18,533 nucleotides of DNA from a virus (IMGVR_UViG_2541047722_000018:1-18533), one strand, 5' to 3'; positions 1 through 15,438 are shown, counted from the stretch's first letter. Notes: generated by a model not told the origin, from the letters alone. Translations and numbers: made by a program.

Positions 1-510
1 ATGATGACGCTGATTATTCCGCGAAAGGAGGCTCCCGTGTCCGGTGAGGGTACGGTGGTCATCCCGCAACCGGCAGGCGACGAGCCGGTGATTAAAAACA
101 CGTTCTTTTTTCCCGATATCGACCCGAAGCGCGTCCGGGAACGTATGCGCCTTGAGCAGACCGTCGCCCCCGCCCGTCTGCGTGAGGCCATCAAGTCAGG
201 CATGGCGGAAACAAATGCGGAGCTGTACGAGTACCGCGAACAGAAAATTGCCGCCGGTTTTACGCGTCTGGCGGACGTTCCGGCGGACGACATCGACGGT
301 GAAAGTATCAAAGTTTTTTACTACGAGCGCGCCGTGTGTGCGATGGCGACCGCGTCGCTTTATGAGCGTTATCGCGGCGTGGATGCCAGTGCGAAAGGCG
401 ACAAGAAGGCCGACAGCATTGACAGCACCATTGATGAACTGTGGCGGGATATGCGCTGGGCAGTGGCGCGCATCCAGGACAAGCCACGCTGCATCGTGAG
501 TCAAATCTGA
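1..510 (+). CDS. L: Head completion/stabilisation protein (P2 gpL-like), 169 aa
   Basis: Full ORF from window start; length and sequence match my recollection of P2 gpL; followed by X in conserved P2 order; stop overlaps X start (ATGA). Confidence 0.85.
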   Translation: MMTLIIPRKEAPVSGEGTVVIPQPAGDEPVIKNTFFFPDIDPKRVRERMRLEQTVAPARLREAIKSGMAETNAELYEYREQKIAAGFTRLADVPADDIDGESIKVFYYERAVCAMATASLYERYRGVDASAKGDKKADSIDSTIDELWRDMRWAVARIQDKPRCIVSQI

Positions 511-713
511 TGAAGACCTTTGCGCTACAGGGCGACACGCTCGACGCCATTTGTGTCCGGTATTACGGGCGCACTGAGGGCGTGGTCGAGACTGTGCTCG
601 CCGCAAATCCGGGACTGGCTGAACTGGGTGCGGTGCTGCCGCACGGCACCGCCGTCGAACTGCCCGACGTTCAGACCGCGCCCGTGGCTGAAACTGTCAA
701 TCTGTGGGAGTAA
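510..713 (+). CDS. X: Tail protein X (P2 gpX-like), 67 aa
   Basis: ATG at 510 overlaps L stop; product MKTFALQGDTLDAICVRYYGRTEGV... has P2 gpX size and position. The track ORF 441..713 is an upstream over-extension. Confidence 0.8.
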   Translation: MKTFALQGDTLDAICVRYYGRTEGVVETVLAANPGLAELGAVLPHGTAVELPDVQTAPVAETVNLWE

Positions 714-716
714 CGC

Positions 717-998
717 ATGACAGCAGAAGAAAAAAGCGTCCTGTCGCTTTTCATGATTGGGGTGCTGATTGTTGTCGGCAAGGTGCTTGCCGGTGGTGAA
801 CCCATCACCCCGCGTCTGTTTATCGGGCGCATGTTGCTCGGTGGTTTTGTCTCGATGGTTGCCGGTGTTGTTCTGGTGCAGTTTCCTGACCTGTCACTGC
901 CTGCGGTGTGCGGCATCGGCTCCATGCTGGGTATCGCCGGTTATCAGGTGATTGAGATTGCCATTCAGCGCCGTTTTAAGGGCAGGGGGAAACCGTAA
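717..998 (+). CDS. Y: Holin (P2 gpY-like), 93 aa
   Basis: Small protein with hydrophobic transmembrane-like stretches (LFMIGVLIVVGKVLAGG; FVSMVAGVVLVQF), a charged C-terminus (RRFKGRGKP), immediately upstream of the endolysin. Confidence 0.8.
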   Translation: MTAEEKSVLSLFMIGVLIVVGKVLAGGEPITPRLFIGRMLLGGFVSMVAGVVLVQFPDLSLPAVCGIGSMLGIAGYQVIEIAIQRRFKGRGKP

Positions 999-1495
999 TG
1001 CCGGTAATTAACACGCATCAGAATATCGCGGCCTTTCTCGACATGCTGGCCGTGTCCGAAGGGACGGCGAACCATCCGCTGACGAAAAACCGGGGCTATG
1101 ACGTGATAGTCACCGGAGTGGACGGAAAGCCGGAAATTTTCACCGACTACAGTGACCACCCGTTCGCGCATGGCCGACCGGCGAAGGTGTTTAACCGTCG
1201 CGGTGAAAAATCCACGGCCTCCGGTCGCTATCAGCAGCTTTACCTGTTCTGGCCGCATTACCGCAAACAGCTTGCCCTGCCGGATTTCAGTCCGTTGTCA
1301 CAGGACAGACTCGCCATTCAGTTGATCCGCGAACGCGGTGCACTGGATGACATCCGGGCGGGACGCATTGAGCGCGCCATTTCACGCTGTCGCAATATCT
1401 GGGCGTCCCTGCCGGGAGCCGGTTACGGTCAGCGTGAGCATTCACTGGAAAAACTGGTCACCGTCTGGCGTACCGCTGGCGGCGTACCGGCTTAA
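998..1495 (+). CDS. K: Endolysin / phage lysozyme (P2 gpK-like), 165 aa
   Basis: Start overlaps Y stop (TAATG); size and position match P2 K within the lysis cassette. Confidence 0.85.
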   Translation: MPVINTHQNIAAFLDMLAVSEGTANHPLTKNRGYDVIVTGVDGKPEIFTDYSDHPFAHGRPAKVFNRRGEKSTASGRYQQLYLFWPHYRKQLALPDFSPLSQDRLAIQLIRERGALDDIRAGRIERAISRCRNIWASLPGAGYGQREHSLEKLVTVWRTAGGVPA

Positions 1496-1509
1496 ACGGA
1501 GTAAACACC

Positions 1510-1935
1510 ATGAAGAAATTATCCCTTTCACTGATGCTGAACGTGTCGCTGGCGCTGATGCTGGCACTGTCCCTGATTTACCCGCAGAGCGTGGCCGTCA
1601 ATTTTGTCGCCGCCTGGGCGATTCTGGCGACGGTTATCTGTGTGGTTGCCGGCGGTGTCGGCGTGTATGCCACAGAGTATGTACTGGAACGCCACGGGCG
1701 GGGGCTGCCGCCGGAATCGCTGGCCGTGAAGATTGTCACGTCGCTGTTTTTGCAGCCGGTGCCGTGGCGCAGACGGGCGGTGGCTCTGGTAGTGATGGTG
1801 GCGACGTTTATCTCGCTGGTCGCTGCCGGGTGGATTTTTACTGCGCTGATTTATCTTGTGGCGTCGCTGTTTTTCCGGCGGATACGTACGGCCTGCCGTC
1901 AGCGTTTTGAGGGGCGGGAACCATGTCAAAGCTGA
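1510..1935 (+). CDS. lysA: Lysis timing/accessory membrane protein LysA-like, 141 aa
   Basis: Strongly hydrophobic multi-helix protein directly after K; AGGA-like RBS before the ATG; same size and position as P2 lysA. Confidence 0.7.
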   Translation: MKKLSLSLMLNVSLALMLALSLIYPQSVAVNFVAAWAILATVICVVAGGVGVYATEYVLERHGRGLPPESLAVKIVTSLFLQPVPWRRRAVALVVMVATFISLVAAGWIFTALIYLVASLFFRRIRTACRQRFEGREPCQS

Positions 1936-2348
1936 TGACTGTGCTGGTTGTGTTGTTATCACTGGCGGTGGCCGGTCTGTTTCTGGTGAAGCATGAAAAC
2001 GCCAGCCTGCGCACCTCGCTGGACAGGGCGAACAGTGTCGCCAGCGGGCAGCAGACGACCATCACCATGCTGAAAAATCAGCTTCATGTTGCGCTCACCA
2101 GGGCAGACAAAAACGAGCTGGCGCAGGTTGCACTGCGTCAGGAGCTGGAGAACGCCGCGAAGCGTGAAGCACAGCGCGAGAAAACCATCACGAGGTTACT
2201 CAATGAAAACGAAGATTTTCGCCGCTGGTACGGTGCTGACCTGCCTGATGCTGTGCGCCGGTTGCACCAGCGCCCCGCCTGCACTGACGCCAGTGATTGT
2301 CCCCAACGCCTGCCCGAAAGTGAGTCTTTGCCCGATGCCGGGCAGTGA
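1923..2348 (+). CDS. lysB: Inner-membrane spanin LysB (Rz-like), 141 aa
   Basis: N-terminal transmembrane segment (LMTVLVVLLSLAVAGLFLV) followed by a charged, coiled-coil-like periplasmic region; overlaps the lysA end; P2 lysB size. Confidence 0.75.
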   Translation: MSKLMTVLVVLLSLAVAGLFLVKHENASLRTSLDRANSVASGQQTTITMLKNQLHVALTRADKNELAQVALRQELENAAKREAQREKTITRLLNENEDFRRWYGADLPDAVRRLHQRPACTDASDCPQRLPESESLPDAGQ

Positions 2349-2493
2349 CCCGCAGACGAACGGCGATTTAAGTGCCGATATCCGGCAGCTTGAGAACGCG
2401 CTGGCACGGTGTGCCAGCCAGATAAAAATGATTAAACACTGTCAGGACGAAAACGATGCTCAAACCCGACAGCCTGCGCAGGGCGCTGACTGA
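2203..2493 (+). CDS. lysC: Outer-membrane spanin LysC (Rz1-like lipoprotein), 96 aa
   Basis: ATG at 2203 inside the lysB 3' end in a different frame; signal peptide with lipobox (LMLCAG-C) and a proline-rich mature part; runs into the R start. Track ORF 2086..2493 over-extends upstream. Confidence 0.7.
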   Translation: MKTKIFAAGTVLTCLMLCAGCTSAPPALTPVIVPNACPKVSLCPMPGSDPQTNGDLSADIRQLENALARCASQIKMIKHCQDENDAQTRQPAQGAD

Positions 2494-2923
2494 TGCCGTC
2501 ACGGTGCTGAAAACTAACCCCGATATGCTGCGGATATTCGTGGATAACGGGAGTATTGCCTCCACACTGGCGACGTCGCTGTCATTCGAAAAGCGTTACA
2601 CGCTCAATGTCATTGTGACCGACTTTACCGGTGATTTTGACCTGCTCATCGTGCCGGTGCTGGCGTGGCTGCGGGAAAATCAGCCCGACATCATGACCAC
2701 CGACGAAGGCCAGAAAAAGGGCTTCACGTTTTATGCAGACATCAACAATGACAGCAGCTTTGATATCAGCATCAGTCTGATGCTGACCGAGCGCACGCTG
2801 GTCAGTGAGGTGGACGGCGCACTGCATGTGAAGAATATCCCGGAACCTCCGCCGCCGGAGCCGGTCACCCGCCCGGTGGAGTTGTATATCAATGGCGAAC
2901 TGGTGAGCAAGTGGGATGAATGA
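2456..2923 (+). CDS. R: Tail completion protein (P2 gpR-like), 155 aa
   Basis: Size and position as P2 R; overlaps the lysC end and the S start. Confidence 0.8.
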   Translation: MLKPDSLRRALTDAVTVLKTNPDMLRIFVDNGSIASTLATSLSFEKRYTLNVIVTDFTGDFDLLIVPVLAWLRENQPDIMTTDEGQKKGFTFYADINNDSSFDISISLMLTERTLVSEVDGALHVKNIPEPPPPEPVTRPVELYINGELVSKWDE

Positions 2924-3368
2924 GTTTAAGCGTTTTGAAGACCGGCTGACCGGGCTGATTGAATCGCTGTCACCGTCAGGGCGTCGGCGACTGAGTGCCG
3001 AACTGGCGAAACGTCTGCGTCAGAGTCAGCAACGTCGGGTGATGGCACAGAAAGCCCCGGACGGCACACCCTATGCGCCACGCCAGCAGCAGAGCGCCAG
3101 AAAAAAGACCGGTCGTGTTAAGCGAAAAATGTTTGCGAAACTTATCACCAGTCGCTTTTTGCATATCCGCGCCAGCCCGGAACAGGCATCAATGGAGTTT
3201 TACGGCGGAAAGTCACCGAAAATCGCCAGTGTGCATCAGTTCGGTCTGTCGGAAGAAACCCGGAAAGACGGTAAGAAAATTGATTATCCGGCGCGTCCTC
3301 TGCTCGGCTTTACCGGTGAGGATGTGCAGATGATTGAAGAGATTATCCTGGCTCACCTTGACCGTTAG
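2916..3368 (+). CDS. S: Tail completion protein (P2 gpS-like), 150 aa
   Basis: Size and position as P2 S; start ATG overlaps the R stop (ATGAATGA). Confidence 0.8.
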   Translation: MNEFKRFEDRLTGLIESLSPSGRRRLSAELAKRLRQSQQRRVMAQKAPDGTPYAPRQQQSARKKTGRVKRKMFAKLITSRFLHIRASPEQASMEFYGGKSPKIASVHQFGLSEETRKDGKKIDYPARPLLGFTGEDVQMIEEIILAHLDR

Positions 3369-3434
3369 TTGTGCCATTCCCGACACCTCATCGTCACATT
3401 GCCGCCGGTATGACCCGGCGGCATCCTTCCCGTT

Positions 3435-4070
3435 ATGAACACTCTCGCAAATATTCAGGAACTCGCGCGCGCACTGCGCAACATGATTCGCACCGGCGTT
3501 ATCGTCGAAACCGACCTTAACGCCGGTCGCTGCCGTGTGCAGACCGGCGGCATGTGCACCGACTGGCTTCAGTGGCTGACCCATCGCGCCGGGCGTTCGC
3601 GCACATGGTGGGCACCTTCCGTGGGGGAACAGGTGCTGATTCTGGCCGTGGGCGGTGAACTTGACACGGCGTTTGTTCTGCCGGGGATTTATTCCGGTGA
3701 TAACCCCGCGCCGTCTGCGTCGGCGGATGCCCTGCATATCCGTTTCCCTGACGGGGCGGTGATTGAGTATGAACCCGAAACCAGTGCACTCACGGTAAGC
3801 GGAATTAAAACGGCCAGCGTGACGGCTTCTGATTCTGTTACCGCCACGGTGCCGGTGGTCATGGTGAAAGCGTCAACCCGCGTCACCCTGGACACACCGG
3901 AGGTGGTCTGCACCAACAGGCTGATTACTGGCACGCTGGAAGTACAGAAGGGCGGGACGATGCGCGGCAACATTGAACACACCGGTGGTGAACTCTCATC
4001 AAACGGTAAGGTACTGCATACCCATAAACACCCCGGCGACAGCGGCGGCACAACCGGGGGACCTCTATGA
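3435..4070 (+). CDS. V: Baseplate spike/assembly protein (P2 gpV-like), 211 aa
   Basis: First gene after a 66-bp gap, consistent with the start of the V-W-J-I-H-G late operon; size matches P2 gpV. Confidence 0.85.
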   Translation: MNTLANIQELARALRNMIRTGVIVETDLNAGRCRVQTGGMCTDWLQWLTHRAGRSRTWWAPSVGEQVLILAVGGELDTAFVLPGIYSGDNPAPSASADALHIRFPDGAVIEYEPETSALTVSGIKTASVTASDSVTATVPVVMVKASTRVTLDTPEVVCTNRLITGTLEVQKGGTMRGNIEHTGGELSSNGKVLHTHKHPGDSGGTTGGPL

Positions 4071-4414
4071 CTGCGCGTTATCTCGGAATGAATCGCAGTG
4101 ATGGCCTGACTGTCACTGACCTTGAGCATATCAGCCAGAGTATCGGCGATATCCTGCGCACGCCGGTCGGCTCACGGGTGATGCGTCGTGATTACGGTTC
4201 GTTGCTGGCGTCAATGATTGACCAGCCGCAGACCCCGGCGCTTGAGTTGCAGATTAAGGTCGCCTGTTACATGGCGGTGCTGAAATGGGAACCCCGCGTC
4301 ACCCTGTCATCCGTCACCACGGCGCGCAGTTTTGACGGGCGAATGACGGTCACGTTAACCGGTCAGCACAACGACACCGGCCAGCCACTTTCGTTAACCA
4401 TCCCTGTGAGTTGA
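4067..4414 (+). CDS. W: Baseplate wedge protein (P2 gpW-like, T4 gp25 family), 115 aa
   Basis: Overlaps the V stop (ATGA); size and order as P2 W. Confidence 0.85.
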   Translation: MTARYLGMNRSDGLTVTDLEHISQSIGDILRTPVGSRVMRRDYGSLLASMIDQPQTPALELQIKVACYMAVLKWEPRVTLSSVTTARSFDGRMTVTLTGQHNDTGQPLSLTIPVS

Positions 4415-4418
4415 AACC

Positions 4419-5327
4419 ATGCCGATTATCGACCTGAACCAGCTACCCGCACCGGATGTGGTTGAGGAGCTGGACTTTGAAACCATTCTTGCCGAACGCA
4501 AGGCGACACTGATTTCCCTTTACCCGGAAGACCAGCAGGAGGCGGTCGCCCGTACCCTGACGCTGGAATCCGAGCCTCTCGTCAAACTGCTGGAGGAAAA
4601 TGCTTATCGTGAGCTTATCTGGCGTCAGCGTGTGAATGAGGCCGCACGGGCGGTAATGCTGGCCAGTGCCGCCGGTAATGACCTTGATGTGATTGGTGCC
4701 AATTACAATACCACGCGCCTGATTATCACCCCGGCAGATGATTCGACCATCCCGCCGACACCGGCAGTAATGGAATCTGACACTGATTATCGTCTGCGTA
4801 TTCAGCAGGCGTTTGAAGGTTTAAGCGTCGCCGGGTCGGTGGGTGCCTATCAGTATCATGGCCGCAGTGCCGACGGGCGTGTCGCGGATATCTCTGTCAC
4901 CAGTCCGTCTCCGGCCTGTGTCACCATCTCTGTGCTGTCACGTGAAAATAACGGTGTCGCATCCGAAGACCTGCTGGCCGTGGTGCGTAACGCCCTTAAT
5001 GGTGAGGACGTCAGGCCGGTGGCTGACCGTGTGACCGTGCAGTCTGCCGCCATTGTTGAATACCAGATAAACGCCACGCTTTACCTTTACCCTGGTCCCG
5101 AAAGCGAACCCATCCGCGCGGCCGCCGTGAAAAAGCTGGAAGCGTACATCACGGCACAGCACCGGCTGGGGCGCGACATCCGTCTGTCTGCCATTTATGC
5201 CGCTTTGCATGTGGAAGGCGTGCAGCGTGTCGAGCTGGCGGCACCACTGGCCGACATCGTGCTCAACAGTACGCAGGCGTCTTTCTGTACCGAATACCGC
5301 GTCGTGACCGGAGGCTCGGATGAGTGA
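4419..5327 (+). CDS. J: Baseplate protein (P2 gpJ-like), 302 aa
   Basis: Size and order as P2 J. Confidence 0.85.
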   Translation: MPIIDLNQLPAPDVVEELDFETILAERKATLISLYPEDQQEAVARTLTLESEPLVKLLEENAYRELIWRQRVNEAARAVMLASAAGNDLDVIGANYNTTRLIITPADDSTIPPTPAVMESDTDYRLRIQQAFEGLSVAGSVGAYQYHGRSADGRVADISVTSPSPACVTISVLSRENNGVASEDLLAVVRNALNGEDVRPVADRVTVQSAAIVEYQINATLYLYPGPESEPIRAAAVKKLEAYITAQHRLGRDIRLSAIYAALHVEGVQRVELAAPLADIVLNSTQASFCTEYRVVTGGSDE

Positions 5328-5850
5328 TTCGCGACTGCTGCCGACCGGCTCATCACCGCTTGAAGTCGCCGCTGCAAAAGCCTGTGCGGAAATTGAAAAA
5401 ACGCCGGTCAGTATTCGTGAGCTGTGGAACCTGGACACCTGCCCGGCAAATCTGCTGCCGTGGCTGGCGTGGGCGTTTTCGGTCGACAGATGGGATGAAA
5501 AGTGGCCGGAAGCGACCAAACGCGCCGTTATACGCGATGCCTATTTCATCCACTGTCATAAAGGCACTATAGGTGCAATCCGGCGTGTGGTGGAGCCGCT
5601 GGGCTATCTCATCAACGTGACGGAGTGGTGGGAAACCAGTGACCCGCCCGGCACCTTCCGGCTTGATATTGGTGTACTGGAAAGCGGTATCACAGAGGCA
5701 ATGTATCAGGAAATGGAACGGCTGATTGCTGATGCCAAACCTGCAAGCCGTCACCTTATTGGCCTGAACATTATCCAGGACATTCCCGGCTGTCTGTATA
5801 CAGGCGGTGTGGTCTGTGATGGTGATGTTATTACTGTTTATCCCGGATAA
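5320..5850 (+). CDS. I: Baseplate/tail protein (P2 gpI-like), 176 aa
   Basis: Overlaps the J end by 8 nt; size and order as P2 I. Confidence 0.8.
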   Translation: MSDSRLLPTGSSPLEVAAAKACAEIEKTPVSIRELWNLDTCPANLLPWLAWAFSVDRWDEKWPEATKRAVIRDAYFIHCHKGTIGAIRRVVEPLGYLINVTEWWETSDPPGTFRLDIGVLESGITEAMYQEMERLIADAKPASRHLIGLNIIQDIPGCLYTGGVVCDGDVITVYPG

Positions 5851-5860
5851 GTGAGAAACA

Positions 5861-8647
5861 ATGAGCACGAAATTTAAAACCGTTATCACTACTGCCGGAG
5901 CCGCAAAGCTGGCAGCCGCCACTGTCCCCGGCGGGAAAAAAGTAAACCTGTCTGCAATGGCCGTGGGTGACGGTAATGGCAAATTGCCGGTGCCGGATGC
6001 CGGTCAGACGAAACTGGTGCATGAGGTCTGGCGTCACGCTCTGAATAAAGTCAGCGTGGATAACAAGAATAAAAACTATATCGTGGCTGAACTGGTTGTA
6101 CCGCCAGAAGTGGGCGGCTTCTGGATGCGTGAACTTGGTCTGTATGACGATGCCGGAACACTGATTGCGGTATCCAACATGGCAGAAAGCTATAAGCCAG
6201 AACTGGCTGAAGGCTCCGGACGTGCGCAGACCTGCCGCATGGTTATTATTCTCAGCAACGTGGCGTCCGTTGAGCTGAGTATTGATGCCAGCACGGTGAT
6301 GGCGACGCAGGATTACGTCGATGACAAAATCGCAGAGCATGAGCAGTCCCGCCGCCATCCTGACGCCACGCTGACAGAAAAAGGTTTTACTCAGTTAAGC
6401 AGTGCAACAAACAGCACCAGTGAAAAGCTGGCAGCAACGCCAAAGGCAGTAAAAGCAGCCTATGACAATGCTGAAAAACGTATGCAGAAAGACCAGAACG
6501 GTGGCGATATTCCAGATAAGGGCGCTTTTCTGGACAATGTTGGCGTTACCAGCCTGACGTTTATGAAAAACAATGGCGAAATGCCGCTTGATGCTGATCT
6601 GAATACATTTGGTCCCGTTAAGGCTTATCTGGGGATCTGGTCTAAAGCTACCTCAACTAACGCAACACTGGAGAAAAATTTTCCGGAAGATAATGCTGTC
6701 GGTGTGCTTGAGGTTTTTGCTGCCGGCAATTTTGCAGGTACGCAACGCTTCACCACGAGAGACGGCAATGTATACATACGCAGACTCGCCAATAAGTGGA
6801 ATGGCTCTGATGGTCCGTGGGGCATATGGCGTCACACTCAATCAGCTACCCGCCCTTTGAGTACGACTATAGACCTGAATACGCTTGGAGCCGCCGAACA
6901 TCTTGGTTTATGGCGTAACAGTAGCTCGGCTATAGCTTCATATGAACGCAATTATCCAGAGGAAGGCGGCTTTGCTCAGGGGATGCTTGAGATCCTCGAA
7001 GGCGGGAATTATGGAAGAACGCAACGTTATACCACTCGCCGTGGAAATATGTATGTCCGCTGCCTTGCGGCAAGCTGGGATGTATCAAATCCGCAGTGGG
7101 AACCGTGGTTAAGAGTCGGTCATCAGTCAGAGAGTCGTTATTACGAAGGTGATTTAAATGTTCTAACCGACCCCGGTATTTACAGTGTTACAGGAAAGGC
7201 AACAAACGGTCCGATGCTGGACACCGTTGGCGCGACACTACTTGGGATACTGGAAGTAATCAGACGTTTTGATGGTGTGTCTGTCTGGCAGCGTTACACA
7301 ACCACAGGGAAATCAGAAACCACACAGGGACGCACTTTTGAGCGCGTCTACGCCGGGAGCAAATGGACCGAATGGCGAGAAGTATATAACTCCTTTTCGT
7401 TGCCTCTGAATCTGGGCATCGGTGGCGCAGTGGCAAAACTATCCAGTCTGGACTGGCAGACCTACGATTTTGTGCCGGGCAGTCTGATAACCGTGCGGCT
7501 TGATAACATGACCAACATTCCCGACGGTATGGACTGGGGCGTCATTGATGGCAACCTGATAAACATCGCAGTTGGTCCGAGTGATGATTCCGGTACGGGA
7601 CGCTCAATGCATGTATGGCGAAGCACTGTAAGTAAAGCCAACTACCGCTTTTTTATGGTGCGCGTTTCAGGAAATCCGGGAAGCCGCACGATTACAACAA
7701 GACGAGTACCAATCATTGACGAAGCCCAGACATGGGGCGCGAAACAGACATTCAGTGCTGGCCTTTCTGGTGAACTGTTCGGCAATGCTGCGACAGCAAC
7801 AAAGCTGAAAACAGCCCGTAAAATTAATAACGTTTCGTTTGATGGAACATCAGATATTAACCTGACGCCTGAAGATATTGGTGCATTGCCAATAACGGGA
7901 GGAACTCTTACCGGCGGTTTAACTGCTGCTGGCGAGATTATTTCCAAATCGGCGAATGGTCTTCGTATTGCCTATGGCAACTATGGATTCTTTATCCGAA
8001 ACGATGGTTCAAGCACATACCTCATGTTGACCAATTCGGGCGACAGCCTGGGAACATGGAATAGTTTAAGGCCGCTTACCATTAATAACGCCAGTGGAGC
8101 TGTTTCTATCGGTAATAGTTTAACTGTTAATGGTGATATAGGAACCAATGCTTGGGTATATGCAAATCGTTTTGCAATTAATAGCAGTACCGGAATGTGG
8201 ATAAATATGCGTGACCAGAATGTTATTTTTGGACGTAATGCGGTATCCACCGATGGTGCTCAGGCATTGTTACGTCAGGACCATGCTGATCGCAAATTTA
8301 TGATTGGTGGTCTGGGGAATAAGCAATTTGGCATCTACATGATTAATAATTCAAGGACAGCCAATGGCACCGATGGTCAGGCGTACATGGATAATAACGG
8401 GAATTGGCTTTGCGGTGCGCAAGTTATTCCCGGCAATTATGGTAATTTTGACTCACGCTATGTGAGAGATGTCAGACTTGGCACACGTGTTGTTCAGACC
8501 ATGCAAAAAGGCGTGATGTATGAAAAATCAGGTCATGTAATCACGGGGCTTGGTATTGTCGGTGAAGTCGATGGTGATGACCCCGCAGTATTCAGACCAA
8601 TACAAAAATACATCAATGGCACATGGTATAACGTCGCACAGGTGTAA
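5861..8647 (+). CDS. H: Tail fibre protein (P2 gpH-like N-terminus, divergent repeat-containing distal region), 928 aa
   Basis: N-terminus MSTKFKTVITTAGAAKLAAA... is the conserved P2-type fibre anchor. It is longer than the 669 aa I recall for P2 H. It has three tandem ~92-aa repeats, a GGTLTGGL motif common in enterobacterial phage fibres, and a visibly more AT-rich distal part. Confidence 0.85.
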   Translation: MSTKFKTVITTAGAAKLAAATVPGGKKVNLSAMAVGDGNGKLPVPDAGQTKLVHEVWRHALNKVSVDNKNKNYIVAELVVPPEVGGFWMRELGLYDDAGTLIAVSNMAESYKPELAEGSGRAQTCRMVIILSNVASVELSIDASTVMATQDYVDDKIAEHEQSRRHPDATLTEKGFTQLSSATNSTSEKLAATPKAVKAAYDNAEKRMQKDQNGGDIPDKGAFLDNVGVTSLTFMKNNGEMPLDADLNTFGPVKAYLGIWSKATSTNATLEKNFPEDNAVGVLEVFAAGNFAGTQRFTTRDGNVYIRRLANKWNGSDGPWGIWRHTQSATRPLSTTIDLNTLGAAEHLGLWRNSSSAIASYERNYPEEGGFAQGMLEILEGGNYGRTQRYTTRRGNMYVRCLAASWDVSNPQWEPWLRVGHQSESRYYEGDLNVLTDPGIYSVTGKATNGPMLDTVGATLLGILEVIRRFDGVSVWQRYTTTGKSETTQGRTFERVYAGSKWTEWREVYNSFSLPLNLGIGGAVAKLSSLDWQTYDFVPGSLITVRLDNMTNIPDGMDWGVIDGNLINIAVGPSDDSGTGRSMHVWRSTVSKANYRFFMVRVSGNPGSRTITTRRVPIIDEAQTWGAKQTFSAGLSGELFGNAATATKLKTARKINNVSFDGTSDINLTPEDIGALPITGGTLTGGLTAAGEIISKSANGLRIAYGNYGFFIRNDGSSTYLMLTNSGDSLGTWNSLRPLTINNASGAVSIGNSLTVNGDIGTNAWVYANRFAINSSTGMWINMRDQNVIFGRNAVSTDGAQALLRQDHADRKFMIGGLGNKQFGIYMINNSRTANGTDGQAYMDNNGNWLCGAQVIPGNYGNFDSRYVRDVRLGTRVVQTMQKGVMYEKSGHVITGLGIVGEVDGDDPAVFRPIQKYINGTWYNVAQV
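6599..7385 (+). repeat. Three tandem ~92-aa (276-279 nt) protein-level repeats inside tail fibre H
   Basis: Repeat units start at 6599, 6875 and 7154, each beginning with an LNT/LNV motif and sharing an ...L(E)VxxxGN(F/Y)xxTQR(F/Y)TTRxGNxYxRxLAxxW... core. Confidence 0.6.
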
Positions 8648-8650
8648 TTT

Positions 8651-9178
8651 ATGCAGCATTTAAAAAATATTACTGCGGGTAATCCAAAAACTGTTGCCCA
8701 ATATCAACTGACAAAAAATTTTGATGTTATCTGGTTATGGTCCGAAGAGGGAAAAAACTGGTATGAGGAAGTAAGTAATTTTCAGGAAGACACGATAAAG
8801 ATTGTTTACGACGAGAATAATATAATTGTCGGCATCACCAGAGATGCTTCAACGCTCAACCCTGAAGGTTTTAGCGTTGTCGAGGTTCCTGATATTACCG
8901 CCAACCGACGTGCTGATGACTCAGGTAAATGGATGTTTAAGGATGGTGCCGTGATTAAGCGGATTTATACGGCAGACGAACAGCAACAACAGGCAGAATC
9001 ACAAAAGGCCGCGTTACTTTCCGAAACCGAATCCGTGATTTTGCCGCTGGAGCGCGCTGTCAGGCTGAATATGGCAACAGATGAGGAGCGCAGTCGACTG
9101 GAAGCATGGGAACGCTACAGCGTTCTGGTCAGTCGTGTGGATCCTGCAAATCCTGAATGGCCGGAAATGCCGCAATAA
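8651..9178 (+). CDS. G: Tail fibre assembly protein / chaperone (P2 gpG, Tfa family), 175 aa
   Basis: Directly after H; size as P2 G; AT-rich like the distal part of H; ends ...[12 protein letters not shown]. Confidence 0.8.
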
Positions 9179-9331
9179 GTTGTATGAGCTCTGGTGGGAG
9201 CTTACATATCTATGGCACAGAGTAAAGCCTAATCTGACAGTCCGCTCTGTGCTAGGAGCGGACATTGTTGCCATCTATCTGCATAAATCTGTGGGGAGCT
9301 GCTCACTTGTGGGGAATGAGTCCTCAACTGT

Positions 9332-9360
9332 TTGCGTTTATAAACACAATCCTTTAGATT
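9332..9360 (+). promoter_or_regulatory. Candidate sigma70 promoter for the cargo ORF
   Basis: TTGCGT (9332-9337), 17-nt spacer, TAGATT (9355-9360), about 30 nt upstream of the cargo start; each hexamer matches consensus at 4/6 only. Confidence 0.3.
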
Positions 9361-9390
9361 CTCTCCTACTATCTACTAAAATTTTATCTA

Positions 9391-10518
9391 GTGAAAATGC
9401 CCAATAATCATATGTATGCAAGTCTACTGTCTTACAAAAACTTAAAGATGGCACATCAAGGAAGTAACTTACGGTCTATTACTGAGTTTTCTCTCTATTC
9501 AGATAGTCAACCAATTGGGGCGGTTGATGATGATTCAGTTTATTGTTTTCTGAATATGTTACCCAGGATAACCAAACAATCCACCGTTGCATCTTCAATT
9601 ACAGTGCGCACAAAGTGGTATAGTGACTTAAATAATATGATTCTTTCTAGTTCTCAGAGTCATACAAAGGATTATCATGGTGGATGGTATAATGATGAAA
9701 TAGCTGCGCTTTCAAGTTTACTGCTTGGTGTCCGTTTTCATGCTGGGTCAATTACTCGTCACTATGATTACTACACAGGTGATTTCGGAAGGATCCAAGC
9801 GGAGAGTTCTTTTCCTCCCGTTTTAGAGTTTAAACATAACAAACCTATAGTTCCTAATGCTATCAAAGAAATTGATATAACTAACCTTAAAGAGCTTAAC
9901 AATTTACATCTCTTAAGTGAAAAGAATTTCAACCATTTAATTAGAGCAGCCAGAAGCTATCAAAATGCATTATGGATATGCGAGTCATCTCCAAATATGA
10001 GTTGGCTATTGATGGTGTCAGCCCTAGAATGTGCGGCTAATCAATGGGCAAAATCCAATGCGTCTAAAGAAGAAAGATTTAAACATGCCAAGCCTGAATT
10101 ATATGAAAAATTAGATACCAATGAATTTAGACATTTAATCTCTATTATTGCTAATGAGTTTAAAGATTCATTTGGGGCGACAAAGAAGTTTGTGGATTTC
10201 TGCCTGTATTTCCTTCCAGATGAACCTCAAGTGAGGCCAAAAGTAGGAAGAATTGATTGGGGAAAAGAATCGCTATCAACAACTTTTAAAAAAATATATA
10301 ACTACCGTTCTAAGGCATTGCATGGAGGACAACCATTTCCTGAGCCGATGTGTTCCTATCCTGAAGTATGGGATGGGTATATTGCTGAACGAGCGAGAGC
10401 ATGTTCAACCTTAGGTGGAACGTGGTTGAATGAAGATGTGCCAATTAATTTAAATACATTCAACTTTATGACCCATTCCATTTTGAATAAGTGGTGGCAA
10501 TCTTTATTACCAAGTTAA
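9391..10518 (+). CDS. Hypothetical protein, cargo gene at the G/FI variable locus; candidate anti-phage defence protein (possible C-terminal HEPN-like R-x4-H motif), up to 375 aa
   Basis: Single long ORF in an AT-rich island: hand count 20/60 G+C at its 5' end versus 33/60 at the start of FI. Start uncertain (GTG 9391, ATG 9397 or downstream ATGs; no strong SD). No transmembrane segments or P-loop seen. Occupies the P2 Z/fun position. Confidence 0.6.
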   Translation: MKMPNNHMYASLLSYKNLKMAHQGSNLRSITEFSLYSDSQPIGAVDDDSVYCFLNMLPRITKQSTVASSITVRTKWYSDLNNMILSSSQSHTKDYHGGWYNDEIAALSSLLLGVRFHAGSITRHYDYYTGDFGRIQAESSFPPVLEFKHNKPIVPNAIKEIDITNLKELNNLHLLSEKNFNHLIRAARSYQNALWICESSPNMSWLLMVSALECAANQWAKSNASKEERFKHAKPELYEKLDTNEFRHLISIIANEFKDSFGATKKFVDFCLYFLPDEPQVRPKVGRIDWGKESLSTTFKKIYNYRSKALHGGQPFPEPMCSYPEVWDGYIAERARACSTLGGTWLNEDVPINLNTFNFMTHSILNKWWQSLLPS

Positions 10519-10540
10519 CACTGTAAGTATCAGTGTTAAC
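10514..10540. repeat. Perfect 10-bp inverted repeat overlapping the cargo stop codon
   Basis: GTTAACACTG (10514-10523), 7-nt spacer, CAGTGTTAAC (10531-10540). Confidence 0.6.
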
Positions 10541-10609
10541 TGCACCATGTAATTTTATATCTGTACCAGACTGGAGGAAAATGTTCGCTTATCGCTCATT
10601 AGGGTCAAC

Positions 10610-10648
10610 CATACTCAAATCTCTCACATTGCAGGAGATTTGAGTATG
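10610..10648. repeat. Perfect 14-bp inverted repeat with 11-nt spacer
   Basis: CATACTCAAATCTC (10610-10623), spacer tcacattgcag, GAGATTTGAGTATG (10635-10648). Confidence 0.6.
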
Positions 10649-10671
10649 AACACGTCACCGTGGAAGGACTG

Positions 10672-10694
10672 GCGGGCGAATTGCCCGCTTTTTT
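10672..10694 (+). terminator. Rho-independent terminator downstream of the cargo ORF
   Basis: GCGGGC-gaatt-GCCCGC stem-loop followed by TTTTTT on the + strand. Confidence 0.6.
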
Positions 10695-10792
10695 GTATCT
10701 GTTGTTTCATCCACTGACCAGCCAGGTCAAATAGCGTCTCATGCTCTGCACAACAGAAAATAGTTGCACCCATTAACCACGGAGTTAAACGG

Positions 10793-11983
10793 ATGAGTGA
10801 CTATCATCACGGCGTGCAGGTGCTGGAGATTAACGACGGCACCCGCGTCATTTCCACCGTATCCACCGCCATTGTTGGCATGGTCTGCACGGCCAGCGAT
10901 GCGGATGCGGAAACCTTCCCCGTCAATAAACCGGTGCTGATCACCAATGTGCAGAGCGCGATTGCAAAGGCCGGTAAAAAAGGTACGCTGGCGGCATCGT
11001 TGCAGGCCATCGCTGACCAGTCAAAACCGGTCACCGTTGTCGTGCGCGTGGAAGACGGCACCGGCGACGACGAAGAAACGAAACTCGCGCAGACCGTTTC
11101 CAATATCATCGGCACCACTGACGAAAACGGTCAGTACACCGGACTGAAAGCCCTGATGGGCGCAGAGTCGGTTACCGGCGTTAAACCGCGCATTCTCGGC
11201 GTACCGGGACTGGACACCAAAGAGGTGGCGGTTGCACTGGCATCGGTATGCCAGGAACTGAATGCCTTCGGGTATATCAGCGCATGGGGCTGTAAAACCA
11301 TTTCCGAGGCAAAAGCCTACCGTCAGAATTTCAGTCAGCGTGAGCTGATGGTCATCTGGCCGGATTTCCTTGCATGGGATACGGTCACCAGTACCACCGC
11401 CACCGCGTATGCCACCGCCCGTGCGCTGGGGCTGCGTGCCAAAATCGACCAGGAGCAGGGCTGGCATAAAACGCTGTCCAACGTCGGGGTAAACGGTGTT
11501 ACCGGCATCAGCGCATCTGTATTCTGGGATTTGCAGAAGTCTGGCACTGATGCTGACCTGCTGAACGAGGCAGGCGTCACAACGCTGGTTCGCCGCGACG
11601 GTTTCCGTTTCTGGGGTAACCGTACCTGCTCCGATGACCCACTTTTCCTCTTTGAAAGCTACACACGTACCGCGCAGGTACTGGCCGACACGATGGCTGA
11701 GGCGCACATGTGGGCTATTGATAAGCCCATCACCGCAACGCTGATTCGCGACATCATTGATGGCATCAATGCCAAATTCCGCGAACTGAAAAACAACGGT
11801 TATATCGTGGATGGCACATGCTGGTTCAGTGAAGAAGCCAACGATGCGGAAACCCTCAAGGCCGGAAAACTGTATATCGACTACGACTATACACCGGTGC
11901 CTCCTCTCGAAAACCTGACCCTGCGCCAGCGTATTACTTCAAGATACCTGGCAAGTCTGGTCACCTCGGTTAACAGCAATTAA
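10793..11983 (+). CDS. FI: Contractile tail sheath protein (P2 gpFI-like), 396 aa
   Basis: GGAG RBS before the ATG; size and order as P2 FI; first gene of the FI-FII-E-T-U-D operon. Confidence 0.9.
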   Translation: MSDYHHGVQVLEINDGTRVISTVSTAIVGMVCTASDADAETFPVNKPVLITNVQSAIAKAGKKGTLAASLQAIADQSKPVTVVVRVEDGTGDDEETKLAQTVSNIIGTTDENGQYTGLKALMGAESVTGVKPRILGVPGLDTKEVAVALASVCQELNAFGYISAWGCKTISEAKAYRQNFSQRELMVIWPDFLAWDTVTSTTATAYATARALGLRAKIDQEQGWHKTLSNVGVNGVTGISASVFWDLQKSGTDADLLNEAGVTTLVRRDGFRFWGNRTCSDDPLFLFESYTRTAQVLADTMAEAHMWAIDKPITATLIRDIIDGINAKFRELKNNGYIVDGTCWFSEEANDAETLKAGKLYIDYDYTPVPPLENLTLRQRITSRYLASLVTSVNSN

Positions 11984-12998: not shown

Positions 12999-15438
12999 CA
13001 ATGTAAAATTACAGGTATTGCTCAGGGCTGTTGACCAGGCATCCCGCCCGTTTAAATCCATCCGCACAGCGAGTAAGTCGCTGTCGGGGGATATCCGGGA
13101 AACACAAAAATCACTGCGCGAGCTGAACGGTCACGCATCCCGTATTGAGGGATTCCGCAAGACCAGTGCACAGCTCGCCGTGACTGGTCATGCACTTGAA
13201 AAGGCACGGCAGGAAGCCGAAGCCCTTGCCACACAGTTTAAAAACACCGAACGTCCGACCCGTGCTCAGGCGAAAGTGCTGGAATCCGCAAAGCGTGCGG
13301 CGGAGGACTTACAGGCGAAATATAACCACCTGACGGATTCCGTTAAACGCCAGCAACGGGAACTGGCCGTTGTGGGAATTAATACCCGCAATCTTGCACA
13401 TGATGAGCAGGGACTGAAAAACCGTATCAGTGAAACCACCGCACAACTTAACCGTCAGCGTGACGCGCTGGCGCGTGTCAGTACGCAACAGGCAAAACTT
13501 AACGCAGTAAAACAGCGTTATCAGGCCGGAAAGGAACTGGCCGGAAATATGGCCTCGGTAGGCGCTGCCGGTGTGGGGATTGCGGCGGCGGGAACGATGG
13601 CCGGAGTTAAGCTGCTGATGCCCGGTTATGAGTTTGCGCAGAAAAACTCAGAATTGCAGGCCGTGCTAGGAGTGGCAAAAGACTCCGCCGAAATGGCCGC
13701 GCTACGCAAACAGGCGCGCCAGCTCGGCGACAACACAGCCGCCTCGGCGGATGATGCAGCAGCAGCTCAAATCATCGTGGCTAAATCAGGAGCGGATAAA
13801 AATGGCATCTTGGCACAAACACCGGCCATTTTGAATATGTCACTGGCAAACAAGAAAACGATGGAGGAAAACGCCACTTTACTTATTGGGACAAAATCGG
13901 CATTCGGGCTTGCTGATGATAAGGCTTCCCATATTGCTGATGTTATTTCAATGACGATGAATAAATCGCAAGCCACATTCGAGGGACTAAGTGATTCACT
14001 TACCTATGTCGGGCCAGTGGCAAAAGATGCAGGTGTCAGCTTGGAAGAAACAGCAGCAATGTTAGGTGCATTACACGATGCAAATATCAGTGGGTCTATG
14101 GCTGGCACAGGAAGTCGAGCAGTACTGAGTCGTTTGCAGGCACCAACCGGGAAAGCGTATGACGCTATTAAAGAGCTTGGCGTAAAGACAACTGACAGCA
14201 AAGGTAATACGCGACCTGTCTTTTCAATTCTGAAAGAAATTCAGCGGAGTTTTGAAAAAAATAAACTAGGAACAGGGCAGCGCGCTGAATACATGAAAAC
14301 AATATTCGGCGAAGAGGCCAGCTCATCAGCAAGTGTATTAATGACAGCAGCAGCCAGCGGCAAGCTGGATAATCTGACCAGGTTGATTAAAGAATCTGAC
14401 GGTAAAACAGAAGAACTGGTTAAGGTTATGCAGGACAACCTCGGCGGTGACTTTAAGGAGTTTCAGTCCGCTTATGAGGCGGTGGGGACTGACCTGTTTG
14501 ACCAGCAGGAAGGCGCACTGCGTAAGCTCACGCAGACGGCCACAAATTATGTGTTAAAACTCGACGGCTGGATCCAGAAAAACAAATCACTGGCGTCAAC
14601 CATCGGCATCATTGCCGGTGGCGCGCTGGCGCTGACTGGCATCATCGGTGCCATTGGTCTTGTCGCCTGGCCGGTTATCACCGGCATCAATGCCATCATC
14701 GCGGCAGCAGGCGCAATGGGGGCAATCTTCACGACGGTTGGCAGTGCCGTTATGACGGCCATCGGGGCGATTAGCTGGCCGGTTGTGGCCGTGGTGGCCG
14801 CCATTGTCGCCGGGGCGTTGCTTATCCGTAAATACTGGGAGCCTGTCAGCGCATTCTTTGGCGGTGTGGTTGAAGGGCTTAAAGCGGCATTTGCGCCGGT
14901 GGGGGAACTGTTCACGCCACTTAAACCGGTTTTTGACTGGCTGGGGGAAAAGTTACAGGCCGCGTGGCAGTGGTTTAAAAATCTGATTGCCCCGGTCAAA
15001 GCCACCCAGGACACCCTGAACCGTTGCCGTGACACGGGGGTCATGTTCGGGCAGGCACTGGCTGACGCGCTGATGCTGCCGCTTAATGCGTTCAACAAAC
15101 TGCGCAGCGGCATTGACTGGGTACTGGAAAAACTCGGTGTTATCAACAAAGAGTCAGACACACTTGACCAGACCGCCGCCAGAACTCAAGCCGCCACGTA
15201 TGGCAGCGGTGGTTATATTCCGGCGACCAGCTCTTATGCAGGCTATCAGGCTTATCAGCCGGTCACGGCACCGGCTGGCCGCTCTTATGTAGACCAGAGT
15301 AAAAACGAATATCACATCAGCCTGACGGGTGGTACTGCGCCGGGGACACAGCTTGACCGCCAGTTACAGGATGCGCTCGAAAAATACGAGCGGGATAAAC
15401 GTGCGCGCGCCCGTGCCAGCATGATGCATGACGGTTAA
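12991..15438 (+). CDS. T: Tail tape measure protein (P2 gpT-like), 815 aa
   Basis: Large alpha-helical protein with a central Gly/Ala-rich hydrophobic segment; size and order as P2 T. Confidence 0.85.
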   Translation: MSNNVKLQVLLRAVDQASRPFKSIRTASKSLSGDIRETQKSLRELNGHASRIEGFRKTSAQLAVTGHALEKARQEAEALATQFKNTERPTRAQAKVLESAKRAAEDLQAKYNHLTDSVKRQQRELAVVGINTRNLAHDEQGLKNRISETTAQLNRQRDALARVSTQQAKLNAVKQRYQAGKELAGNMASVGAAGVGIAAAGTMAGVKLLMPGYEFAQKNSELQAVLGVAKDSAEMAALRKQARQLGDNTAASADDAAAAQIIVAKSGADKNGILAQTPAILNMSLANKKTMEENATLLIGTKSAFGLADDKASHIADVISMTMNKSQATFEGLSDSLTYVGPVAKDAGVSLEETAAMLGALHDANISGSMAGTGSRAVLSRLQAPTGKAYDAIKELGVKTTDSKGNTRPVFSILKEIQRSFEKNKLGTGQRAEYMKTIFGEEASSSASVLMTAAASGKLDNLTRLIKESDGKTEELVKVMQDNLGGDFKEFQSAYEAVGTDLFDQQEGALRKLTQTATNYVLKLDGWIQKNKSLASTIGIIAGGALALTGIIGAIGLVAWPVITGINAIIAAAGAMGAIFTTVGSAVMTAIGAISWPVVAVVAAIVAGALLIRKYWEPVSAFFGGVVEGLKAAFAPVGELFTPLKPVFDWLGEKLQAAWQWFKNLIAPVKATQDTLNRCRDTGVMFGQALADALMLPLNAFNKLRSGIDWVLEKLGVINKESDTLDQTAARTQAATYGSGGYIPATSSYAGYQAYQPVTAPAGRSYVDQSKNEYHISLTGGTAPGTQLDRQLQDALEKYERDKRARARASMMHDG

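Follow-up and report, generated by a model that had tools for sequence, protein, structure and literature searches.

We found that positions 7819–8827 of the window, the 18,533-nucleotide stretch of viral DNA analysed here, very probably form a promiscuous tail-fibre host-range module of the P2/Mu/P1 type, moved by recombination at conserved adaptor sequences. The window covers the late region of a P2-like prophage of E. coli. The phenomenon is already known: an interchangeable P2-like fibre end together with the front third of the chaperone gene, shared with Mu and P1. PMC9594776 states, citing Haggard-Ljungquist et al. 1992, that P2 fibres arose through horizontal transfer, and swapping of tail-fibre and Tfa (tail-fibre assembly chaperone) genes has been reported at the Z/fun hotspot (bioRxiv 10.1101/2024.10.15.618418). 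The parts of the fibre gene H and the chaperone gene G are as follows.

5861–8647, + strand: gene H, tail fibre, 928 aa (P2 H, 669 aa); ORF list and Pfam.
5861–6472, + strand: P2-type N-terminal baseplate anchor of H, residues 1–204; 85% amino-acid identity to P2 H 1–204, GC 0.53.
6467–7812, + strand: middle of H, of vB_YpM_22 (YpM_22) type and absent from P2; ~99% identity to YpM_22, no P2 match, GC 0.49.
7813–7887, + strand: putative recombination junction on the left, within the conserved collar sequence NAATATKLKTARKINNVSFDGTSDINLTP; gap between informative sites.
7888–8545, + strand: swapped patch, a Mu S-type distal fibre domain, H residues ~677–895; ~330 informative sites of M45 type, not YpM22 type.
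7898–7921, + strand: GGTLTGGL motif, H residues 680–687, start of the distal domain; located in the sequence.
8423–8647, + strand: C-terminal tip of H, of P2 type, starting with the GNFDSRYV motif; resumed DNA homology and amino-acid identity.
8546–8583, + strand: right junction of the patch, between the last M45-type and the first YpM22-type site.
8651–9178, + strand: gene G, Tfa, 175 aa; Pfam Caudo_TAP PF02413, E 1e-34.
8651–8929, + strand: N-terminal domain of G, residues 1–93, the AT-rich part of G; PHROG 24494 covers 1–93 only.
8951–9178, + strand: conserved C-terminal domain of G, residues 101–175, of normal GC (0.51–0.58); PHROGs 3792, 188 and 105 match only 101/106–175.

H begins as a P2 gpH-type fibre, with the tail-collar N-terminal domain Phage_tail_fib (PF12571) at residues 1–151 (E 4e-59) and the I gene (5320–5850) directly upstream. 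Pfam also matched Phage_fiber_2 at residues 170–210 and Gp34_trimer at 646–741 (E 1e-28), and the identical H protein occurs on 11 NCBI draft contigs. DNA homology to P2 is limited to 5127–6466 and 8429–9266. The end of the anchor is a recurrent mosaic junction, where homology stops at 6466 for P2 and at 6472 for XJ34. Beyond it, the middle of H carries three tandem repeats of ~85 aa each, mutually 33–40% identical, and YpM22-type informative sites span 6445–7812 in the gene. The GGTLTGGL motif, which the preliminary description had pointed out as one of unrelated fibres, is indeed present; G[GD]TL[TS]GGL variants were found in P2 H (residue 396), Mu S (187), P88 H (443), and the fibre of a 48-kb phage-plasmid (91), and the surrounding Gp34_trimer region (residues 646–741) also matches T4 gp34 structures.

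The distal part of H is of Mu S type. Residues 691–926 are 73% identical to Mu S 270–502 over 242 aligned positions, the match to PDB 5YVQ chain A (the C-terminal region of Mu S) has a phmmer E of 1e-106 with H ~686–927 corresponding to S 265–503, and the DNA is 75–79% identical to the S genes of D6, D108, P1, and Mu. The last 89 residues are P2-type again (70% identity). DNA homology resumes near the tip at 8423 for YpM_22, 8429 for P2, and 8450 for XJ34, and residues 871–895 are 72% identical to P2 H versus 52% to Mu S, with 88% versus 55% for residues 896–928. This C-terminal tip is where the chaperone would be expected to dock.

G starts 4 nt past the H stop codon. It is collinear with P2 G over 175/175 residues at 91% identity, matches Mu U (PDB 5YVQ_B) over its full length (E 2e-102), shows tblastn identities of 90% with P1 U and 88% with its P88 counterpart, and is 100% identical to YpM_22 G. 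Full-length collinearity with P2 had been put forward in the preliminary description as an argument against exchange; it holds for G but not for H, which aligns with P2 H over residues 1–204 and 840–928 only. By analogy with Mu U and P2 G (PMC9608196), G would act as a chaperone in the folding and trimerisation of H and would bind the H tip. PMC9608196, citing North et al. 2019, describes the Tfa N-terminal domain as non-conserved and fibre-binding, and the conserved, helical C-terminal domain as driving trimerisation. The same two-domain layout is seen in G, both in the PHROG split (1–93 versus 101–175) and in 19KM1831, whose Tfa shares the C terminus only. A G variant in P22H1 has 40–60% identity in residues 26–75 and 96% in 126–175, and distant Tfa proteins match residues 94–175 or 125–175 only. 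The N-terminal domain is predicted to bind the fibre, and the C-terminal domain would be the right-hand homology arm in module swaps.

Exchange of the whole module is documented by a sibling prophage, that of E. coli 19KM1831. Its flanks are 96–97% identical to the window, and 7828–9154, which is distal H and nearly all of G, has been replaced as a unit by an unrelated Collar-domain (PF07484) tip and a different, 192-aa Tfa. The two chaperones share only the C-terminal EWPEMPQ; the junction is at 9155. The exchangeable host-range module proposed in the preliminary description, at 7800–9178, lies close to the true limits. Homology of the window to other elements is restricted to this part, starting at 7930 for Mu, 8125 for P88, and 7756 for a 48-kb phage-plasmid, and in every case it stops at the G stop codon (9178); the genes that flank the module in those elements have no DNA homology to the window.

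From its nearest relatives, the prophage of the window is set apart by a smaller swap, an internal patch of ~0.7 kb in H that does not reach the extreme C terminus or G. Identity to YpM_22 is 97% over 4401–7887 and 99% over 8423–11000, with no match over 7888–8422. Informative sites are of YpM22 type up to 7812, of M45 type over 7888–8545, and of YpM22 type again from 8584, so that 7813–7887 holds none. The start of the 19KM1831 swap (7828) and a GC change-point (7818/7819) lie at or near this left junction, and the junctions of the XJ34 mosaic are at 6472 and 8450. Identity of the patch to the M45 prophage of E. coli and to 48-kb plasmids is 92–98% (95% in P2-like prophages and 48-kb plasmids), and at least 80% of it is present in 180 genomes. 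No donor closer than ~95% identity was found. The exchange may have run in either direction: the lineage of the window may have gained an M45-type patch, or the YpM_22 lineage may have lost it. Swapping of the tip together with Tfa, as earlier suggested, is thus seen in 19KM1831 but not in comparison with P2 (G 91%) or the YpM_22 group (G 100%), where G was kept and, for YpM_22, only 7888–8545 in H differs. We suggest that a sub-gene, Mu-S-type receptor-binding cassette of ~0.7 kb may move between P2-like prophages and 48-kb/P1-like phage-plasmids by way of two short conserved adaptor sequences, with the putative Tfa-docking tip and G remaining fixed. Host range in this lineage may be reshuffled in units smaller than the textbook combination of tip plus chaperone.

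Two intervals were delimited by composition.

7819–8827, no strand: AT-rich tract, GC 0.413; segmentation and GC3 tests.
8828–9336, no strand: normal-GC interval (0.509) between the fibre tract and the cargo block; segmentation and GC3 test, with P2 homology up to 9266.

Entropy segmentation of the whole window gave 1–5662 (GC 0.580), 5663–9336 (0.480), 9337–10807 (0.375), and 10808 to the end (0.537), with boundary scores of 47–96. The best sub-segmentation of H–G gave 5663–7818 (0.505), 7819–8827, and 8828–9336, with boundary scores of 12.5–12.8. These fall below the 95% point (14.5) of a null built from ~13 kb of core sequence, not from the 3.7-kb H–G stretch, so the sub-segmentation is modest by this test and the ends of the AT tract are soft by ~100 nt or more. 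The right end (8827) matches no mapped junction (8546–8583 or 9155). The sub-boundary scores are what would be expected if the composition difference were a chance fluctuation or an artefact of judging by eye, but the top-level boundaries far exceed the block-shuffled null maximum of 19.7, the pattern recurs in P2 and Mu, and equally AT-rich windows of the same length are practically absent among the conserved genes (fractions of 0.0008 for 7888–8422 and 0.0000 for 8651–8914). GC3 is 0.62 in 17 backbone genes but 0.38 in H codons 653–928 and 0.34 in G codons 1–59 (Fisher p = 4e-15 and 1.7e-5, respectively; overall range 1e-5 to 1e-15). We therefore give chance next to no weight as an explanation.

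The preliminary description had the distal third of H and all of G as AT-rich. Compared with the baseplate genes, H and the first part of G are indeed richer in AT, beyond chance, but G codons 60–175 normalise (GC3 0.48). GC falls across H in steps, from 0.53 at the N terminus through 0.49 in the middle to 0.44 in the distal part, and rises within G from 0.33 in the first quarter to 0.55 in the last. A like gradient is present in P2 (distal H 0.38–0.46; G 0.34 to 0.55) and in Mu (S 0.39–0.50; U 0.32 to 0.55; baseplate genes 0.53–0.54), and mean GC over eight G homologues climbs from 0.30 to 0.58, with 0.30–0.39 in the first 225 nt. Because P2 and Mu have the same gradient, it is a property of the shared module, not of a recent import, and the composition pattern is not peculiar to this phage.

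A gradient kept in 8/8 G homologues, whatever the host phage, would also be expected if there were no transfer signal at all and the shift reflected structural or translational constraint, vertically kept (beta structure rich in Asn, Ile, Lys, and Tyr, with slow codons for co-translational trimer folding). The N-terminal domain of G, with GC2 of 0.24 and GC1 of 0.41, does point to amino-acid bias. Amino-acid composition accounts for part of its AT-richness, and the low GC2 indicates that structural constraint contributes alongside ancestry. In distal H, however, GC2 is at the backbone value (0.44) while GC3 is 0.38 against 0.62, which makes the shift there mostly synonymous, as is the composition shift at large. 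The module is 75–91% identical across phage families whose flanks lack DNA homology, which is direct evidence of transfer, and breakpoints were mapped. Unrelated replacement modules are AT-rich as well (0.45 in YpM_22, 0.46 in 19KM1831) and fit either view. Constraint may thus contribute without being the whole story, and as the sole explanation we consider it improbable.

Downstream of G lies a separate block.

9267–10664, + strand: independent cargo island at the G–FI (P2 Z/fun) hotspot; P2 homology stops at 9266 and starts again at 10665, GC 0.372.
9391 (or ATG 9397)–10518, + strand: cargo ORF of 375 aa within the island.

It had been proposed that the AT-rich tract continues uninterrupted into this cargo and that fibre tip, G, and cargo were acquired or shuffled as neighbours. 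Neither idea stood. A single AT-rich block of fibre tip, all of G, and cargo, recently brought in or shuffled together from a low-GC donor, would account for three adjacent regions that all lie below backbone GC, and the locus has been called 'mixed purpose', with fibre/Tfa swaps beside defence cargo (bioRxiv 10.1101/2024.10.15.618418). Against it, the rest of G and ~160 bp downstream are back at GC 0.51 before the cargo block begins, P2 homology runs through G to 9266, and 8828–9336 and the cargo differ in GC3 (p = 3e-4). With ~90% identity, G belongs to the P2/Mu type, and P2 and Mu share the gradient. The cargo, at 99.2–99.9% identity, adjoins four H architectures and two Tfa types; the M45 prophage has the patch and G without the cargo, and P2 has the same G but fun(Z). 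The island was found in 5/5426 complete E. coli genomes and the patch in 180, and 0/5426 complete genomes have the combination seen in the window. The cargo was not co-shuffled with the fibre, because the same island adjoins four different fibre architectures, and we regard common acquisition as very unlikely.

The cargo protein matched no PADLOC, Pfam, NCBIfam, or PHROG model; among 26 family members there was no Pfam match at E up to 1, HEPN_Apea included, and no PADLOC match was found for the cargo at E up to 0.1, the ApeA model included. It has the four-helix fold of the HEPN superfamily with the conserved Rx4-6H motif, here in the form Rx4H, and is otherwise unclassified. Somewhat short of an even chance, it could be a stand-alone anti-phage effector of the HEPN (Rx4H) kind, as yet uncharacterised and different from ApeA and AbiV, put into the G–FI hotspot with an integrase-linked island fragment.

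In the recombination reading that we favour, the module comprises the distal receptor-binding part of H, the H C-terminal tip, and the fibre-binding N-terminal domain of G. Its low GC, kept wherever it is found (P2, Mu, and this prophage), is its own, presumably because the module circulates among unrelated phages and phage-plasmids and does not co-evolve with one backbone. Four conserved adaptors could serve recombination: the end of the N-terminal anchor (~6466–6472), the NAATATKLKTAR collar just upstream of GGTLTGGL (7813–7887), the GNFDSRYV region (8423–8450), and the conserved Tfa C-terminal domain (9155–9178). Through the patch 7888–8545, a Mu S-type distal domain sits on a vB_YpM_22-type fibre with C terminus and G retained. 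The P2-type N terminus anchors this fibre to the baseplate, G would fold and trimerise it starting at the C-terminal tip, and the Mu-S-like domain may bind an LPS core sugar, Mu fibres being known to bind LPS (PMC11915804). The cargo island is a separate insertion at the G–FI hotspot.

The mosaic map supplies precise natural splice points, at ~6470, 7813–7887, 8423–8450, 8546–8583, and 9155, where P2-type fibres tolerate the exchange of domains, and it shows that a P2-type tip can carry a receptor-binding domain of Mu S type while the chaperone G stays as it is. Its value is mainly practical, in host-range engineering of P2 particles or tailocins and in receptor prediction for prophages. That distal fibre/Tfa modules form a gene pool common to P2-, Mu-, and P1-like phages and phage-plasmids is only re-confirmed here, and the idea that neighbouring defence-type cargo travels with fibre modules is corrected.

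Among known systems, P2 has the same gene order, J-I-H-G, then the hotspot, then FI. Likeness to P2 extends to H 1–204 (85%), the last 89 residues of H (70%), the collinear G (91%), and the same distal-H drop and G gradient in GC. The P2 genes H and G were reportedly the subject of Haggard-Ljungquist, Halling and Calendar 1992 (J Bacteriol 174:1462). Unlike P2, H has 928 aa and not 669, residues 205–839 have no P2 counterpart and hold the three ~85-aa repeats, the Gp34_trimer-like segment, and the Mu-S-type domain, and the minus-strand fun(Z) is replaced by the plus-strand 375-aa cargo gene.

The crystal structure of Mu S (gp49) with its chaperone U (gp50) is PDB 5YVQ, from North et al. 2019 as cited in PMC9608196. 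The likeness to Mu S/U lies in the 73% identity of H 691–926 to S 270–502 (79–83% over 691–870), the match of G to U over 175 aa, the two-domain Tfa logic, and the GC gradient. Unlike in Mu, the extreme tip (871–928) is P2-type, with 52–55% identity to Mu, and the N-terminal two thirds of H are unrelated to the constant part of S except for the Phage_fiber_2 repeat. A search for gix-like sites with up to 3 mismatches found none, and the genes between G and FI are all on the plus strand, without an invertase or an alternative S'/U' pair of the kind that marks the Mu-style invertible segment.

The P2 Z/fun accessory-gene hotspot is attributed to Rousset et al. 2022 in bioRxiv 10.1101/2024.10.15.618418. 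The cargo island sits precisely there, with G on one side and the FI promoter region on the other; relatives carry varied cargo at this site, such as fun(Z), a Shedu nuclease, NUDIX + HAD, or DUF3606 proteins. ApeA is a single-gene HEPN anti-phage system of ~580 aa, mostly helical and with three domains (bioRxiv 10.64898/2026.01.26.701840), whereas the cargo protein has 375 aa and a beta-rich N-terminal half.

The nearest sequenced phages are Yersinia vB_YpM_22 and vB_YpM_50 and Escherichia vB_EcoM-720R8 (Peduovirus), at 96–99% over H-G-cargo-FI outside the patch, with a 100% identical G and the same cargo. In this group, 7888–8422 (535 bp) is replaced by an unrelated 484-bp segment, and by informative sites the difference reaches to 8545. 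The H protein of these phages is 911 aa long, has a P2-like distal part, and carries the motif GGQLNGAL at residue 772.

The window covers the late-gene region of a P2-like (Peduovirus) prophage, in which lysis genes are followed by the tail and baseplate genes R, S, V, W, J and I, and then by three genes around which the analysis is centred:

5861-8647: H, tail fibre gene, 928 aa
8651-9178: G, gene for the Tfa chaperone of the fibre, 175 aa
9391-10518: cargo ORF, 375 aa, in an island between G and FI

FI, FII, E/E', T, U, D and ogr come after the cargo ORF, and then a host cation-efflux gene. The NCBI draft contig GCA_903975005.1 matches the full-length window at 99.3% identity, and an identical H protein is encoded, with the same gene order, on 11 draft contigs. 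The nearest sequenced phages were Yersinia vB_YpM_22 and vB_YpM_50 and Escherichia vB_EcoM-720R8. At the right prophage end (17114-18533), an ogr-type zinc-finger gene is followed by the host cation-efflux gene (Cation_efflux/ZT_dimer, 17589-18533), which places the attachment site near 17400-17590.

Entropy segmentation of the whole window returned blocks at 1-5662 (GC 0.580), 5663-9336 (0.480), 9337-10807 (0.375) and 10808 to the end (0.537), with boundary statistics of 47-96 compared to a block-shuffled null maximum of 19.7. The AT-rich shift noted in the preliminary description is therefore genuine and has solid statistical backing, but it falls within other limits: the best split within H-G gave 5663-7818 (GC 0.505), 7819-8827 (0.413) and 8828-9336 (0.509), at inner boundaries whose statistics are individually modest (12.5-12.8). 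Conserved-gene windows of equal length were almost never as AT-rich (fractions 0.0008 and 0.0000). GC3 was 0.38 in H codons 653-928 (p = 4e-15) and 0.34 in G codons 1-59 (p = 1.7e-5), compared to 0.62 in 17 backbone genes, and the composition shift is mainly synonymous. The same description had all of G as AT-rich and the tract as running uninterrupted into the cargo. Neither was borne out: GC rises from 0.33 to 0.55 along G, so the tract stops within that gene, and a normal-GC interval of ~500 bp (8828-9336) separates it from the cargo block.

This profile was also observed in other phages. In P2 itself, GC falls from ~0.55 to 0.38-0.46 in distal H, runs from 0.34 to 0.55 along G, and is 0.33 in fun(Z), while Mu has 0.39-0.50 in S and 0.32 to 0.55 in U, compared to 0.53-0.54 in its baseplate genes. 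Mean GC over eight G homologues rose from 0.30 at the 5' end to 0.54-0.58 at the 3' end. The low-GC composition is a property of the shared module, not of this phage.

The GC gradient of G follows the two-domain Tfa structure. G has a Pfam Caudo_TAP match, is matched over its full length by the Mu chaperone U (PDB 5YVQ chain B, E 2e-102), and has tblastn matches in P1 U (90% identity) and P88 (88%). PHROG families split G at residues 93/101, several distant Tfa proteins align only to its C-terminal 50-80 residues, and the P22H1 variant of G is divergent at residues 26-75 and 96% identical at 126-175. In the published Tfa model, as PMC9608196 relays it from North et al. 2019, binding of the fibre falls to a non-conserved N-terminal domain, and trimerisation is driven by a conserved helical C-terminal one; the two-domain split of G agrees with that model. 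An NCBIfam search returned no match for H or G. Two further ORFs are probably spurious calls. One, at 9081-9407 (+, 108 aa), overlaps the end of G and the intergenic region and has no family match, and the vB_EcoM-720R8 annotation labels part of it 'ubiquitin-conjugating enzyme H (fragment)'. The other, at 10624-10773 (-), overlaps the region upstream of FI and is also an annotated gene in that phage.

H is a composite of several segments. Residues 1-204 are a P2-type baseplate anchor (85% identity), while residues 205-650 are common to the vB_YpM_22 group, absent from P2, and contain three tandem repeats of ~85 aa each. These repeats (window 6580-7400, residues about 240-510) are 33-40% identical to each other, with a conserved DLN...G.LE...QR.TT...W..W pattern, and may resemble pyocin or fibre 'knob' domains. 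A PDB sequence search with residues 203-652 gave no match at E up to 1. The homologue in the E. coli M45 prophage was only 58-78% identical across 6701-7400. Further along, residues 691-926 match Mu S 270-502 at 73% identity, reaching 79-83% over 691-870, and the final ~58 residues are P2-type, with 72-88% identity to P2 compared to 52-55% to Mu. The GGTLTGGL motif (residues 680-687, nt 7898-7921) has G[GD]TL[TS]GGL variants in P2 H, Mu S, P88 H and a phage-plasmid fibre, and the segment around it matches Pfam Gp34_trimer and T4 gp34 structures; the motif is therefore shared with unrelated fibres, as had been proposed. Collinearity with P2 had been named as evidence against an exchange, and it was found in G (at 91% identity) but not in H.

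DNA homology to P2 covers 5127-6466 and 8429-9266, and then resumes from 10665 onward. Relative to the window, vB_YpM_22 is 97% identical over 4401-7887 and 99% over 8423-11000, with no match at 7888-8422. Informative sites between the window, vB_YpM_22 and M45 were vB_YpM_22-type up to 7812, M45-type at 7888-8545 (~330 sites), and vB_YpM_22-type again from 8584 through G. The difference from the nearest relatives is therefore an internal patch of ~0.7 kb, with the extreme C terminus of H and G untouched. Copies of this patch with 93-95% identity are found in further P2-like prophages, repA-bearing 48-kb plasmids and plasmids of ~95 kb; at least 80% of it is present in 180 genomes, and its best match was 95% identical. 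One such 48-kb E. coli plasmid with repA, NZ_CP070136.1 (3769-5338), encodes baseplate proteins J and I of P2-like type and has a pair of fibre genes; the second (346 aa) carries the same Mu-S-type patch at 92-98% identity and adjoins a G-like Tfa. It is a phage-plasmid drawing on the same fibre gene pool as P2-like prophages.

DNA homology of the window to other elements is confined to 7930-9178 for Mu, 8125-9178 for P88 and 7756-9178 for a 48-kb E. coli phage-plasmid, and its right limit is the G stop codon in every case. In the E. coli prophage of 19KM1831, flanks of 96-97% identity surround a replacement of 7828-9154 as a single unit, comprising a Collar domain (PF07484) tip and a different 192-aa Tfa that has only the C-terminal ...EWPEMPQ in common with G. 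This is a classic tip-plus-chaperone swap. Its limits nearly equal the 7800-9178 proposed for the exchanged host-range module. G is unexchanged relative to P2 or the nearest relatives.

Junctions recurred in conserved sequences, namely the anchor end with its Phage_fiber_2 repeat, the GNFDSRYV region, the Tfa C terminus, and the NAATATKLKTAR collar just upstream of GGTLTGGL, in the same place as the GC change-point at 7819. In XJ34, a further comparison sequence, the junctions were at 6472 and 8450. Recombination at such conserved adaptor sequences would account for the module exchange. We also considered whether this H/G copy originated from an invertible segment, and rejected it: no Mu gix-type crossover site (26-mer, up to 3 mismatches) was found, and the sequence has neither an invertase nor an inverted S'/U' pair. 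Scans for direct and inverted repeats over 5700-10900 gave short chance-level matches only, none flanking the module or the cargo.

Two other candidate mosaic features were observed. The centre of the tape-measure gene T (13791-14590) is a second AT-rich patch, with GC of 0.42-0.49 compared to 0.53-0.63 in its flanks. Identity to P2 is only 64-74% there, compared to 88-100% in the remaining T, and this patch, too, is probably a mosaic segment. Along the window, GC first drops inside gene I (change-point 5662), where the 3' part (5601-5700) matches P2 at 98% identity and vB_YpM_22 and M45 at only 83%, the opposite of the H pattern. The identities and the GC drop point to a further mosaic junction just upstream of H.

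The cargo island (9267-10664) is bounded by P2 homology, is entirely missing from M45, and was found in 5 of 5426 complete E. coli genomes. In these five, the cargo adjoins H genes of four different architectures and Tfa genes of two types, and the combination of patch and cargo seen in the window occurs in none of the 5426. The suggestion that fibre and cargo were shuffled as neighbours is contradicted by these arrangements: the cargo is a separate module that assorts independently of the fibre. Relatives carry fun(Z), a Shedu nuclease, NUDIX plus HAD, or DUF3606 proteins at the same position. Variable cargo between G and FI is in line with the known Z/fun hotspot of P2, and swaps of fibre and Tfa genes at that locus were also reported in 2024 (bioRxiv 10.1101/2024.10.15.618418).

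The cargo protein, which has a HEPN fold and an invariant Rx4H motif, is unclassified and had no match in Pfam, PADLOC, NCBIfam or PHROGs. A scan of 8600-10900 found 5 promoter-like sites compared to 6.1 in shuffled sequence, which is no excess, and a sole terminator (10671-10689), located upstream of FI in sequence homologous to P2. A 10-bp hairpin (GTTAACACTG...CAGTGTTAAC) overlaps the cargo stop codon (window 10513-10590), and this hairpin and the next ~50 nt also occur in pJtgc-02-p2, a 188-kb E. coli plasmid with no annotated cargo gene ahead of them. The island's right end (10580-10662) holds a perfect 14-bp hairpin (10610-10623 / 10635-10648) and matches a site-specific integrase gene (201 aa) at 92-94% identity, over the region upstream of that gene and its first six codons (MNTSPW). 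The matching integrase-upstream sequence is present in about 766 E. coli genomes, with one instance inside a defence-type island of adenosine deaminase, NTP pyrophosphatase and SIR2, followed by the integrase and then an Abi protein. These matches suggest that the cargo arrived together with a fragment of an integrase-linked island.

Functionally, the P2-type N terminus of H would attach the fibre to the baseplate. P2 and P1 fibres are LPS-directed. The Mu fibre recognises LPS (PMC11915804), and by analogy the probable target of the Mu-S-type domain is an LPS core structure. G would fold and trimerise the fibre, beginning at its C-terminal tip, and may stay bound to it, as Mu U does (PMC9608196).

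Overall, the original observation was partly confirmed and its interpretation partly supported. Of the by-products, two are the most useful: a set of precise natural splice points, and the HEPN-fold cargo with its Rx4H motif. Horizontal transfer of P2 tail-fibre genes has been described since 1992 (Haggard-Ljungquist et al., as cited in PMC9594776), and the exchangeable host-range module found here is the standard one of P2, Mu and P1, with the composition it has everywhere.
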